Source of the DNA: Malacoraja senta
Taxonomy: Eukaryota
Reading direction: 5' to 3'
NCBI GenBank assembly: GCA_038087875.1
Contig: CM075988.1
Location: 5,766,001-5,830,000, forward strand
DNA length: 64,000 nt
The notes below the pieces were generated by a model. The model made no database searches and had not been told where the DNA came from. It was given only the letters and a program-made list of their open reading frames with translations. Each line of letters starts with the position of its first letter. Position 1 is the stretch's first letter. Of the stretch, positions 11,288 to 37,098 are shown piece by piece. Position numbers and translations under genes: made by a program.

Positions 11288-11487
11288 NNNNNNNNNNNNN
11301 NNNNNNNNNNNNNNNNNNNNNNNNNNNNNNNNNNNNNNNNNNNNNNNNNNNNNNNNNNNNNNNNNNNNNNNNNNNNNNNNNNNNNNNNNNNNNNNNNNNN
11401 NNNNNNNNNNNNNNNNNNNNNNNNNNNNNNNNNNNNNNNNNNNNNNNNNNNNNNNNNNNNNNNNNNNNNNNNNNNNNNNNNNNNNNN
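11288..11487. other. Assembly gap (200 N)
   Basis: Run of N. Confidence 1.
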
Positions 11488-28703: not shown

Positions 28704-29017
28704 AGCCCCTGTCCCACTTTCCCGAGTTACTCACGAATTCTCCCGAGTTTTCCTCTTGATTCAAACTCGGAGAATTACGGTAATAGCCAGCCGTAGGTAC
28801 TCGGGGCTATTTTTATTTTTTTACTCGTGGACATTTATCAACATGCTGAAAAAACGTCCCAACCTACCTGATGCCCCGAGTACCCACGGCTGGCATTACG
28901 AGCCGCTACGAGATATCTACGGACGCCTACGGACTCGCTACGGACATTCTCCGAGTTTGAAGCAAGGGGAAAACTCGGGAGAATTCGTGAGTAACTCGGG
29001 AAAGTGGGACAGGCCCT
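28704..29017. mobile_element. PIF/Harbinger-type MITE with about 70-bp TIRs
   Basis: CCTGTCCCACTTTCCCGAGTTACTCACGAATTCTCCCGAGTTTT... mirrored at the right end; TTA on both sides (28701-28703, 29018-29020). Confidence 0.85.
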
Positions 29018-30199
29018 TTAGTAAGTAGCTAGTATCCAAATTAAACTGTAAAATAGGTAAGGTAATGGCATTTGGATTACAGGCTGAAGCAAGTGCAATT
29101 TTACTGAGAGTCAACATGGTCAGAGAACTGAAATGTGCGGCTGGAAAGGGCTGTCGTGAGGGAATTGGGCTTAAATTTATGGACAAGTGTAAACTCACTG
29201 ACCGTTTCGCTGAACACTAATGCTCGGTCCGCCAAGGCCTCCCGGTTGCTAACCATTTGAACTCCCCTTTCCATTCCCACACTGACCTTTCTGTCCTGGG
29301 CCTCCTCCATTGCCATGGCAAGGCCACACGCAAACTGGAGGAACAGCAGCTCATATTCCGCATGGGTAGCTTACAACTGAACAGTATGAAGACTGAATTC
29401 TCTAACTTTAAGTAACTTCTACAAACACTTCCCTACCCCCTCTCTCCCTTTCCTCCACTAAAAGTCAGTTAACCAGTTCCACAGTTCACAATGACGTGTC
29501 CCTCTTTGGATCACACCGTCCCCAGTCAACAATTGGCCTATCAGGGAACCTCCCTGACTGAGGTCACCTGCTGCCGGTCACGTTTTGGCCTGGTCTTTCT
29601 TGTTCCCAGACCATACCCCCCCCCCCCCCCAAAACCCACAATCAGTCTGAAGTAGGGTCATAAGTTCTAGGAGCAGAGTTCGGCCATTCGGCACATCAAG
29701 TCTACTTTGCCATTCAATCATGGCTTATCTATCTCTCCCTCTCAACCCCATTCTCCTGCCTGCTCCCCATAACCCCTGATGCCCTTACTACATTGAACGT
29801 TGAATGTTAAATTCTATCACAATATCATCACTGTTCCTCAAGGGCCCCTAAACCTCCAGATCATCATTAAATCTCTTGCACATCATAACACTCAATCTCA
29901 AATTGACTGTTTCCTTTTCCTAATTCGTAGCAATATTTTTCTTTTTTACTCCATTACCTCATCCTCCATGTTATTACAGGTAATTTGGTTTCACATAGAT
30001 TATGGTATATACATAGATCAATACTCCACATGGTTAATTATCGTTCTTAAGAGTTAGAGACAGAGCATTGAAATAGGCCCTTCGCCCACCGTCCACGCTG
30101 CCCATTGATCATCTGTTCACACTAGTTCTACGTTACGCAACTCGAGGCCACCTCAGCGACAGAGACCATCTCAGCACTAGTGCCATCTCGAGCACATAA

Positions 30200-30613
30200 A
30201 GGGCCCGTCCCACTTTCACGACTTAATACAAAACCTCTGCCGAGTTTAAAGGACCTAAAAAAAAATCAAGATCGTGGTAATCTACAAACTCCTACGACCT
30301 TCCACCACTATGTTCACGAACTCCTACGAGTATGTCTATGAATTCCCACGACTATTTTGATGCCCTCCTTAAGAGTAATTGCAATTTCTTTCATTCCGAC
30401 CATTTTTTTACTCGTAGACATTTTTTATCGGGCTGGAAAAAAAGTCCCGACTAACCTGATGCCACGAGTACCTACGGCTAGCATAACGGGCCGCTACGAT
30501 ATATCTACGAACTCCCACGACCTCCTAGGGACACGTTACGAACATTCTGCGAGTTTGAATCAAGGGGAAAACTCGGGAGAATTCGTGAATTGTCTCGTGA
30601 AAGTGGGACACTC
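30200..30613. mobile_element. PIF/Harbinger-type MITE related to 28704-29017
   Basis: AGGGCCCGTCCCACTTTCACGA...TCGTGAAAGTGGGAC; shares the internal GAGTTTGAA.CAAGGGGAAAACTCGGGAGAATTCGTGA. Confidence 0.75.
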
Positions 30614-30640
30614 CAACACACTCCAACAATATTCACTTAC

Positions 30641-30647
30641 GAGCCAT
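30641..30647 (-). CDS. TIRAP: TIRAP start-codon segment (ATG GCT C) of predicted exon 30641-30785
   Basis: Acceptor ctaactgtttcgttctgcttcgcag| at 30786 and donor |gtaagt at 30640. The phase-1 junction gives MARFFRWF..., matching the MA|xWF pattern of vertebrate TIRAP. Confidence 0.7.
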
Positions 30648-31214
30648 GTGCTGCTGTGAGGACCACACCTATGCACCACACACGACCAAGACAGTAGCCA
30701 ATGGAGCCAATTCCTTCTTCAGCTTGCCGTTCTGGTTAGCAGCAGAAGAACCTTCTCTCCGAACACTACTGCATGGTGGCTTCACCTGCGAAGCAGAACG
30801 AAACAGTTAGCCAAATTCTGCCAGTTGATAATCTACGTCACCAATCCTGTAACCAGGTTAATTCCCAATGGAGAGAAGTCCACACAGCAAACGCGTTCAA
30901 TCACAAGGAGGACCCTGAACGGCTAGCACGGAGATGGAACAACTTCACGAGGATGCAATTGATCACATAAGGGAGGACATAGAGAGATCCTTATACCATA
31001 TCTAACCAATACATTGGCAACTTGGTAGGTCAGTTTCAGCACTAAAATGACTAACAAGTAACAAATTCTCGTTTTGGAGATTTGAATGCTGAAGAACGAA
31101 GGAGACTGCAGAAACTGGTGGACATTGCCTGGTCCATCAATGGTATTGACCTCTACACCAATGAAGAGATCTACAGGAAGTGCTACCTTGTGAAGGCAAG
31201 TCCACAACCCCCTG

Positions 31215-31727
31215 AATGTGGTAACACAAGTAGATAGAGTGGTAAAGAAGGCATATGATATGCTGGCTTTCATAGGTCGGGGCATTGAGTATAAGAGTCA
31301 CATGAAGCTTTATAAGACTTTGGTTAGGCCGCATTTGGAGTATTGTGTGCAGTTCTGCTCACCCCATTACAGGGAGGATGAGAGGCTTTAGAAAGGGTGC
31401 TGTGAAGGTTTACCAGAATGATGCCTGGATTAGGGGATATCAGCTACAGGAAGAGGTTGAACAGACTTGGATTGTTCCTTCTGAAACGCCAGAGGTGCTC
31501 AGAGAACTGATAGAAGTATAGGCAATATGAGTGGCATGGAGAAGATATTCAGTCAGAACCTTTTTACCAAATGGAACTATCAAATACGAGAGCATAGTAT
31601 TATGGTGAGAGGGTCGACATTTACAGGAGATGTGCGGGCATGTTTTTTAAAATAAATACAGCGAGTGCCTGGAATGCATTGACATAGATACAATAGTGAT
31701 ACTTAAAAAACTTTTGGATAGGCCTTC
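31215..31727 (+). mobile_element. Degenerate CR1 3' fragment interrupted by the LTR element; resumes at 34291-34370
   Basis: KLYKTLVRPHLEYCVQF motif; the CR1 3' UTR-like tail continues after the right TSD. Confidence 0.75.
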
Positions 31728-32763
31728 TGTTACAGGGCAACAGGTTGAAGGATCTGACTAGTAGAACAGAAAAAGGCTCACTCGTCTGTTCAATCACAAA
31801 TCAGTTTTATTGGCAAAAGAGAACAAAAACAATACTTGTCTTGGTAGCGCGGGGTCCGTTTTACAGCAGCACACCTCTCTCTCTCTCTCTCCCTCTCCCC
31901 CTCTCCCTCCCTCTACCTCTGTAGCGCTGATCGCGACTCAGCCCATCAGTGAACCCCTCTTGTACACAAACTCACTTCTGGCCAAAGATCCTCTAGCGGA
32001 GCAAGATAGACCGCTCCTTCTAAATGCAATGGGCTGACGTGTAGTACACAACGGAGCGGAACGTGGGCCTTTTTTTCATCCATTTCAGTAACCGACCCGA
32101 CCCGACTCGCAGTGTAATCAAAGTTGCTGGGGGAACAGTTTGTGTTAATAAATTATAATTCTGAAAATGAGAAGAGTTTTACCAAAGAACTTTTATTTTT
32201 ACGAGGATGTTTCCGTAACCGGCTTCCGTCTCCGCACTAGTATCTTTGCTCCGCTATGGGATCTTTGGTGCGGAGACGGAAGCCGGTTACGGAAATGGGG
32301 CCAGAAATTACCCATGAATCTGCCCATGACCGTACTACATCTTTTTCGTCGAGTGATCTATCTTGCTTGCTATAGGATCTTTGCTTCTGGCTTCCTGGCG
32401 CCTGCCTTTATACAGGCAAGTAATCAGCTGTTGAAATAACCACTGATAAGTCCAGGCCAATAACGCTGCTCCCAAATTTAAACTATAACCAATGGCAGGG
32501 GACTGCATCCCAGCCAGCCCCCCTTTGGGAACAAAGTGTTATCAGCTACAGACTTGGTGCGCAAAGCAATATACACACAGAGCTGCTGGTTTTGCGTGCA
32601 AAGGCTTAAACAGAGGGTTGTCAGCTTAACGCGTCAGAATTCAAACAAAGAGCTGTCGACTGAAGCACTCTGGGTTCTAAAAATAGCGCTACCGACCACA
32701 ATGCTATGGGCTTCAAACAGCGCTATGGGCCACAGACTGCTCGGGCAAAATTCTCATATAACA
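31728..32763 (-). repeat. 3' LTR (contains a MITE at 31983-32383)
   Basis: TGT...ACA termini; minus-strand TATAAA at 32407-32412 and AATAAA at 31806-31811; colinear with 33777-34285. Confidence 0.9.
31983..32383. mobile_element. MITE with CAAAGATC termini and perfect 8-bp TSD CTTCTGGC
   Basis: TIRs CAAAGATCCTCTAGCGGAGCAAGATAGA / TCTATCTTGCTTGCTATAGGATCTTTG; TSD 31975-31982 and 32384-32391; the empty site is visible in the other LTR (about 34007-34014). Confidence 0.9.
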
Positions 32764-32774
32764 TTCCACCCCTC
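32764..32774 (-). promoter_or_regulatory. Polypurine tract
   Basis: Minus strand GAGGGGTGGAA immediately precedes the TGT of the 3' LTR. Confidence 0.8.
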
Positions 32775-32829
32775 GAACAGTCTGGTCACCTTCACATCCG
32801 GCCCACAGGCGTTACCTCGTTACATCCGG

Positions 32830-33057
32830 CCCACAGGCTGTAGTAAAGTCCACGCAGTCATGATGCCAATCCACACATACAACACAGTAATATTATGTCC
32901 CAATGGTCAGTCCCCAGTGCACCACTGTTGTCCACCAGCCTCCAAACATCCCGAAAGGCCACCATCCCTCTGAAGGATTGCAGTCATGGCACTATTCTCC
33001 GACCCCTCAAATCTTCTCTACGGCTTCCTGGATGTGGTTAGCGAGGTTGGTGAGGTT
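32830..33057 (-). pseudogene. Retroviral env transmembrane-subunit C-terminal remnant (putative)
   Basis: NLTNLANHIQEAVEKI*GVGE*CHDCNPSEGWWPFGMFGGWWTTVVHWGLTIG / IILLCCMCGLAS: an N-glycosylation sequon plus heptad, a Trp-rich membrane-proximal segment and a hydrophobic anchor with CC, just upstream of the PPT. Confidence 0.6.
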
Positions 33058-33067
33058 TTATTTTACT

Positions 33068-33717
33068 TCACTCAGGATCAAACCAGTCACCGAGTCGGTA
33101 TGACCACGCATGGCACAAATTAACTTGTGTTGTCGGAGGTCCCAAACCTTAATGCCCTCATCAATACCAGAAGAGATAATCTGATCGCTTGTGTCATTAA
33201 ACGTTACTGCCAGTACTTGGTACGTGTTCTAAAACGTATCGATTGCAGCCTTCTTCCGAATGTCCCATAACTTCTCTGTTTCGTCGTCGCTTCTGTGGTC
33301 CCCGTCGGACTACAAGCATGAATTCACAAAGGATGTGTGACCTTTAAGCCTCTTGATTCTTTCACCTGCTTCACTCCCACACTGCTACAGTTTTGTCTGT
33401 TGATGCTAGAAAAAGCATGCTGTCACCCATGTTATAATGCAATTCCATTACTGCTCCACACTGCCTTTCAATGTAGCATAATAATCGCAATCGCCATGTA
33501 TATTCCAAAACATATGAGTCGATTAAATCCTGCAGATGCCAGTGTTGATCCATTCAGGTGAAACTTCTCCCTCGTGACCCGTTAAAAGCATTAGAGGAGC
33601 TTGAAGTCTCAAGGTTCTTGGTCCTGCCTGCAGCATGGCCTGCTGCGGGCTCCCCTGCACCGAGGGCAGCAGCTTGTTGCGGGGGTGCTTGGCCTGCACC
33701 AGCGCCATCTCATTTGC
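33068..33717 (-). pseudogene. SNRNP40: Processed, 3'-truncated SNRNP40 (U5-40K/WDR57) pseudogene
   Basis: Contiguous intron-free translation with frameshifts and stops: LQAPLMLLTGHEGEV, FHLNGSTLASAGFNRLI, GDCDYYATLKG, GAVMELHYN, ASTDKTVAVW, RIKRLKGHTSFVNSC, RRGPQ, KLWDIRKKAAI, NTYQVLAVTFNDTSDQIISSGID, IKVWDLRQ, MRGHTDSVTGL. Confidence 0.95.
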
Positions 33718-33756
33718 TATTTCTTTTTACCAAACATTTTCTATTCTCTTCGTCAG

Positions 33757-33774
33757 ATCCTGCCGACTACGCCA
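33757..33774 (-). promoter_or_regulatory. Primer-binding site complementary to tRNA-Ser
   Basis: Minus TGGCGTAGTCGGCAGGAT, 2 nt after the 5' LTR. The plus strand ATCCTGCCGACTACGCCA equals the 3' end plus CCA of vertebrate tRNA-Ser(AGA/TGA) as I recall it. Confidence 0.88.
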
Positions 33775-33776
33775 AA

Positions 33777-34285
33777 TGTTGCGAGGGAACAGGTTCAAGG
33801 ATCTGACTAGTAGAACAGAAAAAGGCTCACTCGTCTGTTCAGTCACAGATTCGTTTTATTGGCAAAAGAGAACAAAAACAATACTTGTCTTGGCATGCGC
33901 GGGGTCCGTTTTACAGCAGCGCACCTCTCTACCTCTCTCTCTTCCTCCGTCCACGACGCTGATCGCGACTCAGCCTGTCGGTGAAACCCTCTCGTACATA
34001 AACTCACTTCTGGCTTCCTGGCGCCTTCCTTTATACAGGTAAGAAATTAGCTGTTTTTAATAACCGTTGGTAAGTCCTGGCCAACAGCGCTGCTCCCAAA
34101 TTCAAACTATAACTAATGGCAGGGGACTTCACCTGAGCCAGCCAGCCCCCCCCCCCCCACTTTGGGAACGAAGCGCTATCAGCCGCAGACTGGCGCGTAA
34201 AGCACAATGCAATGGGCTTCAAACATAGAGCTAGGGCCACAGCGCTGTGGGTCACAGGCTGTTCAGGAAAAATTTCAGTATAAGA
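33777..34285 (-). repeat. 5' LTR (509 bp)
   Basis: Minus-strand TATAAA at 34030-34035 and AATAAA at 33855-33860; ends ...AACA before the PBS; the outer terminus reads TCT instead of TGT. Confidence 0.9.
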
Positions 34286-34924
34286 CCTTCTAAAGGCAGA
34301 TAAGATTTAGTCAACATCATGTTCAGCACAGACAACATGGGTCTGTTCTTGTACTGTATTATTCTGTTCTTAGTTTAGATCAGAGATAGAATGCGGTTTA
34401 AGTTCAGCCTGCTGAGTCCGCGTTGACCCTTGACCCTTACACCCGTTTTATTTTACATTCTAGAGACAATTTTACAGATGCCAAATAAATCTACAAACCT
34501 GCACGTCTTTAGAATGTGGGAGGAAACCGGAGCACCCGGAGGAAACTCACATAGTCGCATGGAGAATGCACAAACTCCGTGTAGACAATAGTGCTTTATT
34601 TGTCATATGTGCAACTGCACAATGAAATTCCTTTTGCATATAAGCATCGGGGGGCTATGGCGGCCTGAGAAGGCACATCAGTGTTGTCTCAGTAGCCCAG
34701 TCTCCAGCTCATTTGATCCACACCATGTGCTTTCAGAAATGATGGAGAGCGATGGATTCAGCACAGCTGCTGGACAGGACAACTGTCGCACCAAGGATGT
34801 GTAGGAAGGAACTGCAGATGCTGGTTTACACCGAAGACACACACAAATTGCCAGAGTAACTCAGCGGAAAAGGCAGCATTCTGGAGAGAAGGAATGGGTA
34901 ACGTTTCGGGTCGAGACCTTTCTA

Positions 34925-35330
34925 AGGGGGGACTTGATAGAGGTCTTTAAAATGATGAACGGGTTAGACAGAGTTGACGTGGATAAGCTTTTCCCATTGA
35001 GAGTAGGGAAGATTCAAACAAGGGGACATGACTTGAGAATTAAGGGACAGAAGTTTAGGGGTAACATTAGGGGTAACTTCTTTACTCAGAGAGTGGTAGC
35101 TGTGTGGAATGAGCTTCCAGTGGAAGTGGTGGAGGCAGGTTCGATTTTATCCTTTAAAAATAGATTGGATGGGTATATGGACGGGAAAGGAATGGAGGGT
35201 TATGGTCTGAGTGCAGGTAGGGGGACTAGGGGGAAGAAAAAAGGGGGGGAAAAAGGAAACAAAAAAAGTGTTCGGCACGGACTTGAAGGGCCAAGATGAC
35301 CCGTTTCCGTGCTGTGATGGTTATATGGTT
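34925..35330 (+). mobile_element. CR1 3' fragment, same young subfamily as 6360-6775
   Basis: Nearly identical nucleotide sequence and translation (IEVFK.M.GLDRVDVDKLFPLRVGKIQTRGH). Confidence 0.9.
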
Positions 35331-36971
35331 CAGACAGAAGGGCCTCAACTTGAACATGCGCCTACTGCCCAAGCCAGACATAATACCAGATTAAACTAAT
35401 CTCCTCTTCCTGAACATAATCCATACCCCTCCGTTCCTTGCATATCCATGTGCCTATCTAATAGCCTCTAAATGTTCCTATTGTATCTCTCCACCACAAA
35501 CACTGGCAGCGTGCTCCAGGCACCCACCACATCTCATGTTCATTAGGTCTAGGAGCGGACTTAGGCCATTCGGCCCATCAAGTATATTCTGCCATTCAAT
35601 CATGGCTGATCTATCTTTCCCTCTCCCAACCCCATTCCCCTGATATTTCCCCATAATCCCTGGCACCCGTACTAATCAAGAATCTATCAATCTCCACTGT
35701 AAAAATATCCATTGACATGACCTCCACAGCCATCTGTGTAAATGAATTCTACAGATTCACCACACTCCGACTAAAGAAATATTTTATGTGTCATTCCTAA
35801 CTGTCACTGTATGTCATGTTGTCACTTGCGGGTGGAGCACCAAGGCAAGTTCCTTGTATGTGAATATACTTGGCCAATAAACGTATTCATTCATAAACTT
35901 ATTCATTCATTCATTCGCAATTAAATCTTGCTCATCTCACCATAAAGCTATGCCCTCTAGTCTCCATCGTAGTTCCAATCAGTCCAGCCTCTGAACACCA
36001 CAGTGGTAAGTCCTCAGTACAATGTCCTCCACCCAGCCATCTCCTGCTGCCCCACCAATGACTTCCCTTCCATCACAAACGCCTGAAATGAGGATGTTTG
36101 CTGATGTTTGCAACTATGGTCTATTCTGATGCAAGTACTCAGCAAATGAAGCAACCCAACGGGTACAAATAAAACCTTTGGAGTAATTAGTTTGCAACAG
36201 CAAGGCAGAATGGTAAAGCTATCTATCACATACTGTATATGTTATTTGGGGATCATTTCCAGAGTTCAGACGGGGGAAAGGTTCCCCAGGCTTGCTCTAG
36301 TCGGGAACATCACAACTGGTGGGGCAGCTGGGAGAGCTGCTGCCTCACAGCGCCGAAGACCCGGGTTCGATCCTGACCTCGGGTGCTGTCTGTGTGGAGT
36401 TTGCAACCACACAGGTGCTCGGGTTTCTACCCACGTCCCAAAGATGTGGGGGGTTCCATAGGTTATACTGGGCTCTGAAAATTACCCCTAATGTAGACGG
36501 CTGGTAGAGTTTGCGGAAGGGAGGGGGAGGGAGGAGAGGAGGGGGGAGGGGAAGGAGGGGGGAGGGGAAGGAGGGGGGAAGGAGGAGGGGAAGGGAGGAG
36601 GGGAGGGGAAGGGTTGATGAGAATCTGGAATTAATTACTGTAAATGATCGTAGCAGAGTCCGTGGGCCGAAGGGCCTGTTTGGTTTCAGTGTCGAGGAGG
36701 GGGGAAGTGATCATCAAAGAGTGTTGTATTATCAGAAGTCCCAGAGGGAGCAGAAACTTACTTGCAGCGGCACGACAGAATGTGTAACTTAGTACTCTGT
36801 AAACAAGATAATAAACTAGAAAACAAGTTACTCCCCGCAGTTAACATAACTCTTTATAACACAGCACATGCGGACAGGCGGCGGTTTCGGTACAGACAAA
36901 AATACCTATCAGGAAGTGGTAAGAAAGTACTTGCGGCGGTGGAACAAAGTGCTCGCCATTCCCAGTCGGAG

Positions 36972-37098
36972 TGTGGTGTGGTGTAGTGTAGTGTAGTGGT
37001 GAGGAGGTGCGGGTCCCGTCCCGTCCCGTCCCGTCCCGTCCCGTCCCAGTCCCAGTCCCAGCCCCAGCCCCAGTCCCAGCCCCAGCCCCAGCCCCAGC
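36972..37098. repeat. Compound microsatellite (TGTRG)n, (CCCGT)n, (CCCAGY)n; shorter in the duplicate at 43142-43220
   Basis: Directly visible. Confidence 0.9.

Follow-up and report, generated by a model that had tools for sequence, protein, structure and literature searches.

How does a fragment of a spliced host messenger RNA come to stand between the long terminal repeats (LTRs) of a provirus that has neither gag nor pol? The question is raised by a locus at positions 31723–34290, on the minus strand, of a 64,000-nt stretch of contig CM075988.1 (hereafter the window, whose numbering is used throughout). Between its LTRs this provirus carries a fragment of the gene SNRNP40. We refer to the provirus as the window copy, and to the family of gene-less endogenous retroviruses (ERVs) carrying the same fragment as the SNRNP40 family. 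The locus is, with high probability, an old and decayed insertion of a non-autonomous ERV family with a gamma-type env, which captured its SNRNP40 fragment by template switching and spread in trans in the genome of a skate-like host. The initial annotation, made from the letters of the window, had taken the locus for a fossil transducing retrovirus. The capture of a spliced host mRNA is borne out by our analysis; the provirus is, however, not a lone fossil but a member of an amplified family.

A spliced fragment of SNRNP40 in place of viral genes

The window copy contains no gag or pol, and env is present as a tail only. The cargo (33068–33708, minus strand, 641 nt) corresponds to SNRNP40 codons 11–238 without introns, and a WD40-like reading frame starts at its ATG (33708). 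A 105-residue stretch of the translated cargo (with X at stops) is 76% identical to SNRNP40 of the thorny skate (P0007) and matches SNRNP40 of all vertebrate groups; the cargo protein also has a Pfam match to WD40 families. Searching the host genome (1.94 Gb) with P0007 retrieved an intron-bearing SNRNP40 gene on contig C3857 as eight exon-wise matches (74–94% identity). Over exons 1–6 the protein of this parental gene, the splice sites of which were placed by hand before the comparison, is identical to P0007 at 247 of 249 positions. The host is therefore skate-like, in line with the cartilaginous fish that had been thought probable from the window alone.

The cargo matches parental exons 1–6 in six collinear blocks (80–93% identity at the DNA level), with all five introns absent. 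Homology begins at codon 11 (ATGGCG...), 30 nt into the coding sequence of a gene of ~348 codons, and it ends in the middle of exon 6, 57 nt short of the exon-6 donor. Within the window, homology to the parental gene reaches as far as base 33068, which is where the initial annotation had estimated the end of the cargo to be. Six in-frame stops, counted in the tblastn match, disrupt the reading frame, as do two deletions of 14 nt each and a number of smaller indels. Neither poly(A), 3' untranslated region (UTR) nor a target site duplication (TSD) was found around the cargo of the window copy, and poly(A) and TSD were likewise absent in 20 aligned copies. An intronless cargo that stops within the coding sequence, is disabled, and has neither poly(A) nor a TSD of its own had been claimed for this locus, and on each of these points the comparison with the parental gene agrees.

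Shared junctions at independent insertion sites

The initial annotation had suggested counting copies with identical junctions and different TSDs, and such copies proved to be numerous. The LTR retrieved 611 candidates from the genome, and the 39 non-self matches that were scored are 80–86% identical to it. With the internal region, from primer-binding site (PBS) to polypurine tract (PPT), 129 candidates were found; 19 of 39 non-self best matches (78–84% identity) run from position ≤6 to position ≥966 of 1013 and hence include both junctions of the cargo. A protein search with P0007 gave 119 matches from the best 116 of 235 candidates, of which eight belong to the parental gene, two are unrelated WD40 matches, and 109 belong to intronless copies. 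The latter merge into at least 62 loci on 18 contigs, and none extends past residue ~251 among the candidates scored. The layout LTR-PBS-leader-cargo-env tail-PPT-LTR is repeated at other loci of the family.

For the 5' junction, 30 loci were aligned; once three duplicates and two copies that start later had been set aside, the LTR end, PBS, leader and cargo start were the same in all 25 remaining copies, one of which has a 10-nt deletion over the ATG. The 3' junction shows the same join in 20 of 20 aligned copies. These 20 come from a set of 27, seven having been dropped for partial BLAST matches to the 160-nt probe; the matches of six of the seven still cross the junction position and that of the seventh begins beyond it. 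Seven copies were examined at both ends for TSDs. Two have perfect 5-bp duplications (GAAGG in the window copy and GACCT in L048), three match at four of five positions, and in two the boundaries could not be placed. The sequence of the TSD differs from locus to locus. Shared junctions together with differing TSDs indicate that a single capture was followed by many independent integrations.

A set of identical chimeras might also be produced by segmental duplication of one chimeric locus, rather than by retrotransposition, and four duplicate pairs do occur: L032/L033, L043/L044 and L046/L047 share their flanks, and L063/L064 give identical matches in protein searches. After removal of these pairs, at least ~58 independent loci are left. 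Apart from the pairs, the outer flanks are unrelated between loci, the loci are spread over 18 contigs, and the 5-bp duplications that immediately border their LTRs differ from one another. The chance that segmental duplication accounts for the family as a whole is therefore close to nil.

The divergence of the insertions gives an indication of their tempo. Among the 10 copies in which 300 or more nt could be aligned between the two LTRs, the median Kimura two-parameter (K2P) distance from LTR to LTR is 0.143 (range 0.112–0.188). The window copy, with 237 nt, has a value of 0.11, or ~14% mismatch over all blocks delineated by the repeat finder. Distances between copies within the cargo (dN 0.12, dS 0.16) are of the same size, and the parent-rooted tree is star-like, with terminal branches of 0.066 on average, internal branches of 0.0067, and support of at least 0.9 at one of 25 nodes. 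Since the tree is star-like and LTR–LTR divergence equals copy–copy divergence, the data fit one old burst soon after the capture. At an assumed neutral rate near 1e-9 per site per year, the burst would date to the order of 70 million years ago.

One of the copies, L081 (G000:C5:50706300-50714300), has its cargo split by ~5.3 kb of nested sequence from long interspersed nuclear elements (LINEs). A frame of 624 aa in this copy was considered as a recombinant with pol and rejected; it is an accidental run from SNRNP40 codons into LINE reverse-transcriptase motifs.

Junction sequences and mode of capture

The 5' switch occurred within ~10 nt upstream of the cargo ATG. When the copies are aligned with parental exon 1 and with L075, an env-bearing relative on contig C2, this zone (33709–33718, minus strand, ending GAGATGG) could come from either donor. 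The family reads ...CGAGATGG at this point, the parent GGAGATGG and L075 CGAATGG. The GA(G)ATGG-type match between the family and L075 may represent a microsimilarity of the kind reported by Tan et al. (2016). At the 3' switch, comparison of the copies with parental exon 6 and with the env of L075 and L063 shows that parental homology stops at ...AGTGG and env homology starts at GAGAACATCACC; the 7 nt between them (33061–33067, minus strand, GGTAAAA in most copies) are assignable to neither donor. The join is in frame in most copies (...VTGLTLSG-VKENITNLADHIQEAVEKI...), and beyond it come a stretch rich in tryptophan and a hydrophobic span. The founder was without gag, pol and most of env, and carried spliced SNRNP40 codons 11–238 fused, without a change of frame, to the final ~95 codons of the env transmembrane (TM) protein. 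No cis signal was lost from the chimera, which retained the PPT and both LTRs as well as the tRNA-Ser PBS with a stem of U5 and leader around it.

The simplest account of these junctions is a double template switch in minus-strand synthesis. Viral RNA and SNRNP40 mRNA would have been packaged together in one particle, and minus-strand synthesis would have copied the viral 3' end, that is U3, PPT and the env tail. The reverse transcriptase would then have jumped into exon 6 of the SNRNP40 mRNA and copied it back to codon 11, before a second jump returned it to viral RNA, in the leader immediately before an ATG. The insertions that followed are observed directly, and for each of them the chimera would have been transcribed, packaged, reverse-transcribed and integrated in trans by the proteins of a coding-competent relative. 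As the family is devoid of gag and pol, its amplification would have required factors supplied in trans.

The first steps may have been different. In read-through transduction, a provirus would have integrated within SNRNP40 exon 1 or a very short way upstream of it, a deletion in the DNA would have fused the leader to exon 1, and the spliced read-through RNA would have been packaged, so that the 3' junction alone arose by a template switch, onto helper RNA. This route is the textbook one for oncogene capture (Chong et al. 2014 cite reviews), and it is in good agreement with a 5' junction in exon 1, no more than 30 nt from the start of the coding sequence, and with downstream exons that are all spliced up to exon 6. 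Nothing in the data separates it from the double switch. The 5' junction stands beside the possible GA.ATGG microsimilarity with the L075 leader, which suits a switch of the reverse transcriptase. We regard read-through as unlikely, though a contender that deserves serious attention.

LINEs could also be held responsible, if a LINE-made processed pseudogene of SNRNP40 had inserted into an ordinary provirus, which then lost gag and pol by deletion and was amplified. LINE fragments are indeed common, one being found next to the provirus (34805–35299) and nested LINEs splitting L081. Nevertheless, the cargo has none of the poly(A), 3' UTR or TSD of a processed pseudogene (poly(A) and TSD in the window copy and the 20 aligned copies alike); it begins at codon 11 and ends in mid-exon; both of its ends abut viral sequence with no more than 7–10 nt of filler; and no SNRNP40 retrocopy extends past residue ~251 among the 116 candidates scored. 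A LINE origin of the cargo is accordingly most improbable.

Cis-acting sequences of the window copy

The cis signals of the provirus can be followed along the window copy. Direct reading of 31500–34500, combined with a repeat finder, gave the order TSD-LTR-PBS-leader-cargo-env tail-PPT-LTR-TSD on the minus strand, and the proviral anatomy described by the initial annotation for 31723–34290 was found to be accurate to the base. The upstream TSD (34286–34290, GAAGG on the minus strand) is identical to the downstream one (31723–31727); both are 5 bp long.

The PBS, TGGCGTAGTCGGCAGGAT (33757–33774, minus strand, 18 nt), is separated from the end of the 5' LTR by a TT dinucleotide and is complementary to the 3' end of tRNA-Ser plus CCA. 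It is kept in 25 of 25 aligned copies. According to ARAGORN, the tRNA-Ser(CGA) and tRNA-Ser(AGA) genes of the host genome end in its complement, so that the tRNA-Ser primer originally proposed is corroborated. A pattern search located the complement at five places in the genome: three are tRNA-Ser(CGA)/tRNA-Ser(AGA) genes, one is the PBS of another LTR element, and one has no tRNA. The locus with the other LTR element, L076, was considered as a tRNA gene and rejected, since neither ARAGORN nor Rfam gave a tRNA there; at L076:1500-1521 (G000:C2:59731847-59731865) this different element has a longer (22-nt) PBS for the same tRNA-Ser.

Between PBS and cargo there is a leader of ~50 nt, common to all 25 aligned copies (33719–33756 up to the switch zone in the window copy, minus strand). 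Judging by similarity, the leader is retroviral, because L075 is 84% identical to the family over the PBS and the initial ~57 nt beyond the LTR. Part of it pairs with U5: the two halves of a 25-nt inverted repeat of 84% complementarity, one in U5 (33798–33822, minus strand) and one in the leader (33737–33761, minus strand, overlapping the end of the PBS), form the arms of a stem that brackets the PBS. The predicted RNA fold of this region in the window copy has an energy of -35.5 kcal/mol (z = -3.74; none of 200 shuffled sequences was as stable). Most of the 25 copies are predicted to form the same stem, which has two parts; L075 keeps the outer one. U5-leader stems promote tRNA-primed initiation in avian and murine retroviruses, and the stem may be the reason why this length of leader was retained.

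Beyond the cargo, the C-terminal tail of the env TM protein (32775–33060, minus strand), comprising a membrane-proximal region, a hydrophobic span and a cytoplasmic tail, is 71% identical at the nucleotide level to the 3' part of the env open reading frame (ORF) of L075. Close to its end lies a 28-nt tandem repeat with two units (about 32784–32838, minus strand). The number of units upstream of the PPT varies between copies, with about 8–9 in L081 (L081:7258-7528) and 3–4 in others (L056, L004, L042). The PPT, GAGGGGTGGAA (32764–32774, minus strand), abuts the 3' LTR, and its position is kept in copies that reach position 1013 of the internal region.

The LTR pair of the window copy aligns in six collinear blocks of 49–126 nt each with 78–92% identity. 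The 5' LTR (33777–34285, minus strand) measures 509 nt and has the termini TC...CA, and the 3' LTR (31728–32763, minus strand) measures 1036 nt and has the termini TG...CA. The difference in length is due to a 401-bp insert in the 3' LTR and to the loss from the 5' LTR of ~130 nt of U3, which are present in the 3' LTR and in other copies of the family. The 5' LTR contains the motifs TATAAA (34030–34035, minus strand) and AATAAA (33855–33860, minus strand), which we take to be promoter and poly(A) signals.

The insert (31983–32383) is a non-autonomous DNA transposon, a miniature inverted-repeat transposable element (MITE) whose terminal inverted repeats start with CAAAGATCC; the repeat finder reported two inverted repeats in it, and a perfect 28-nt inverted repeat lies in its interior. 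It is flanked by an 8-bp duplication, GCCAGAAG (32384–32391 and 31975–31982), on the basis of which we presume it to be hAT-like, and the insertion site is uninterrupted in the 5' LTR. Summed contig depth over the MITE is very high in runs of all four organism labels, pointing to a very high-copy family shared across related species. Contigs of run X21, which is probably DNA, match the window on the MITE only.

The env tail and the source of trans-acting proteins

The nature of the env tail bears on the kind of virus that founded the family. The part of the L075 env ORF to which the window tail is homologous is its end; in the upstream part of this ORF the TLV_coat domain (PF00429) was recognised with 24.1 bits against a curated cutoff of 22.5; in the variant L063 the same domain scores 23.1 bits against that cutoff. 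With TG...CA termini in the 3' LTR (TC...CA in the 5' LTR), a 5-bp TSD, a tRNA PBS, a PPT and a TM protein of TLV_coat type in L063 and L075, the family shares these features with class I-like ERVs. L063 and its duplicate L064 (G000:C1:83434161-83435165 for the former) contain, after the SNRNP40 junction, ~45 extra codons of the env TM ectodomain (the TLV_coat core, ...ALQNRMALDFILAEKGGTC...C...), followed by the usual tail. This variant looks like the product of a later recombination with an env-bearing relative.

Sequences related to the TM piece are abundant, with at least 1201 candidates in the genome. Among the best 150, which were scored, the best non-self match is L075 (68%), and many others lie in open frames of ~430 aa with 54–58% identity, so that other, younger ERVs with this type of env exist. 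Dozens of gamma-type env TM matches in frames of ~430 aa, and another set in frames of ~380 aa, are nearly identical to one another and distributed over many contigs, which suggests that much younger ERV families with intact env are present in the host genome. A search with the internal region of L075 retrieved about 6–8 related loci (70–77% identity), some of which have ~850 nt more than L075.

The initial annotation had envisaged a helper with the same LTR and PBS. None was found; what we recovered are degraded env-bearing relatives that share the PBS and the leader. The best 29 non-self LTR loci comprise 13 that adjoin cargo-type internal sequence and 16 with neither PBS nor internal sequence. 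No pol was detected in the SNRNP40 family or among 25 plus-strand ORFs of L075, 24 of which are without any Pfam match.

Several observations weigh against a family captured by template switching and spread in trans. There is no coding-competent element with the family LTR among the best 29 non-self LTR matches, none of which has gag-pol. The closest env-bearing relative, L075, has an LTR end that is only 71% identical and no Pfam-recognisable gag or pol. The ~50 nt from PBS to cargo leave little room for a conventional packaging signal. Microhomology at the switch points could be read only against the true viral donor, and 7–10 nt at each junction cannot be assigned. The copy counts are lower bounds, 116 of 235 candidates having been scored for the protein and 40 of 129 for the internal region. 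Finally, the contigs that match the window copy exactly, those of run X1, may be from the assembly's own sample.

Support from reads and from other genomes

Two joints of the window copy are covered by short-read contigs as well as by the assembly. Contigs of run X1 are exact across the joint between 5' LTR and flank (34175–34513) and across the cargo/env junction (32952–33187), which substantiates the assembly with the proviso on the origin of X1 just given. Contigs of two other organism labels cross the 5' junction, one from X3 (33561–33820) and three from X4 (33602–33759, 33617–33779 and 33669–33821), and a further X4 contig (33021–33187) crosses the 3' junction. These junction-crossing contigs are about 85–92% identical to the window. 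In the little skate, a 270-aa model described as 'LOW QUALITY PROTEIN: U5 small nuclear ribonucleoprotein 40 kDa protein-like' (P0101) reads through the same SNRNP40-env junction. It is 60–81% identical to copies in the host genome, with none closer among the best 142 of 376 candidates. A search of 5.8 billion proteins with the junction region gave a single candidate and missed P0101 itself, so that it does not bear on distribution.

Two further signals from other organisms were considered and set aside. In X3 and in X4 a single contig links 31638 directly with 34313 and so omits the whole element, but as evidence of an empty orthologous site this joint is too weak, since its shorter side is 22 letters long and the skip exceeds the element plus TSD by 111 nt. 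Word shares of 0.17–0.21 in other organisms most likely stem from high-copy repeats (the MITE and 34467–34587) rather than from the orthologous locus.

Fate of the chimeric reading frame

The in-frame fusion raises the possibility that the SNRNP40-TM protein is, or was, a functional gene, recruited by the host or serving the element, and that open frames are maintained by selection. The fusion is in frame across the family, some copies keep stop-free frames of 258–335 aa, and the little-skate copy P0101 has been annotated as a protein. The codon tests point in the opposite direction. Among 27 copies omega is 0.75 in frame, not below the values of 0.69 and 0.65 obtained in the two wrong frames on the same columns, and changes found in at most two copies are spread evenly over codon positions 1, 2 and 3 (256, 246 and 232). 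The 27 differences from the parent that are present in at least 80% of copies are distributed 8, 2 and 17 over the three positions, as expected if the parental gene has been constrained since the capture. In the only supported sub-clade (L049 and L055, both with long frames), the stem carries five synonymous and 13 non-synonymous changes, 23% synonymous being the random expectation. In addition, the open frames differ from one another by indels, and the fragment presumably holds under five of the seven WD40 blades of SNRNP40. That the fusion is a functional gene is hence very unlikely. As the codon tests show neutral decay since insertion, the SNRNP40-TM frame is a passenger, and the open frames are chance survivors.

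Surroundings of the provirus

The provirus lies in repeat-rich surroundings, with no host-gene ORF evident within 27–39 kb. The LINE fragment at 34805–35299 is part of a 3' ORF and shares its motif with the LINE nested in L081. Two stretches, 34467–34587 and 31200–31440, reach a summed contig depth of up to 4 million in all runs and are probably short interspersed nuclear element (SINE)-like or other high-copy repeats. An Rfam scan of 29000–37000 gave nothing. Further away, the window contains an assembly gap of 200 N (11288–11487).

Implications

The family constitutes a natural experiment in which a gene-less vertebrate retrovirus with a fragment of a host mRNA reached dozens of germline sites, and it thereby bounds the cis requirements of trans-mobilisation in this lineage. 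It also provides a dated marker family for skate and ray genomes. For annotation it is a trap: copies are read as 'SNRNP40-like' proteins, as in the case of P0101, which is an artefact of the chimera.

A much broader proposition, for which we would claim little likelihood, is that cartilaginous-fish genomes repeatedly turn LTR elements into high-copy gene-transducing vectors, ~0.9–1 kb of cis sequence (LTR, tRNA-Ser PBS in a U5-leader stem, ~50-nt leader, env tail and PPT) being enough, in the present family, for packaging, reverse transcription and integration to take place at least ~58 times. If true, the packaging requirement of this lineage would be unusually small for a vertebrate retrovirus. 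At its boldest, the speculation holds that the in-frame SNRNP40-TM product, a truncated U5 snRNP (small nuclear ribonucleoprotein) protein, might have been expressed by the founder and might have been helpful to it, for example by disturbing the splicing of viral RNA, the burst having been too fast to leave a codon signal.

Comparison with known systems

Non-autonomous murine ERVs are amplified in trans, ETn being mobilised by MusD and VL30 by murine leukaemia virus. Like these elements, the SNRNP40 family has LTRs, PBS and PPT around a non-coding or foreign interior, and has reached many germline copies, for which ETn and VL30 use helper proteins. Unlike it, ETn and VL30 are not known to have a recognisable spliced host coding sequence in their interiors, and the LTRs of ETn are also those of its helper, whereas for the SNRNP40 family no helper with the same LTR was found.

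Acutely transforming retroviruses, to which the locus had been likened by the initial annotation, are a second helper-dependent group for comparison. In these viruses too, viral genes are replaced by spliced cellular sequence, which is sometimes fused to env or gag, and to this extent the analogy is sound. It does not extend to function: acutely transforming viruses are exogenous and somatic and their cargo drives growth, whereas the SNRNP40 family has spread in the germline and its cargo bears no sign of selection.

Literature searches, judged by title and abstract, gave no report of SNRNP40 (WDR57) within an LTR element, nor of families of this kind in skates; Repbase or Dfam may hold a consensus entry. 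The closest parallels are the LTR-mediated retrocopies, or pseudo-LTR retrotransposons, treated in the pertinent part of Tan et al. (2016; Genome Res, PMC5131818), where partial retrocopies flanked by LTRs are described, together with microsimilarity at the points of switching and with secondary retroposition. As in those cases, a partial intronless mRNA is found between parts of an LTR element, the junctions are of template-switch type, and the chimera has been re-retroposed as a non-autonomous element. The SNRNP40 family has a cargo between LTRs that is free of introns and truncated at both ends without poly(A), and it occupies many sites with the same switch points. The copy numbers given in that account are 1–5 for Bs1 in maize, with several insertion sites in flies. 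In contrast to the cases presented there, the present family has at least ~58 independent insertions, a carrier of retroviral type with an env remnant, no gag-pol whatsoever, and a cartilaginous fish as host.

Crocodilian ERVs offer the other parallel. As reported in the relevant sections of Chong et al. (2014; Retrovirology, PMC4299795), they captured KIT-ligand (CrocERV29) and nectin3 (CrocERV31), and like the SNRNP40 family they represent germline ERV lineages with a captured host mRNA, several insertions, and a distribution shared between related species. The cargos of the CrocERVs are described in those sections as full-length ORFs under purifying selection, gag-pol being kept and nectin3 replacing env, with six insertions. 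The cargo of the SNRNP40 family is truncated and neutral, no viral gene is kept, and the copy number is ~10 times higher than that reported for the CrocERVs. LTR-mediated gene capture followed by amplification has so far been seen in animals mainly at low copy number, to the extent covered by these parts of the two papers (Tan et al. 2016, PMC5131818; Chong et al. 2014, PMC4299795). The kind of phenomenon encountered at this locus is already known; the SNRNP40 family stands out by the number of its copies, by having lost all viral genes, and by a cargo fused cleanly and in frame to the env tail.

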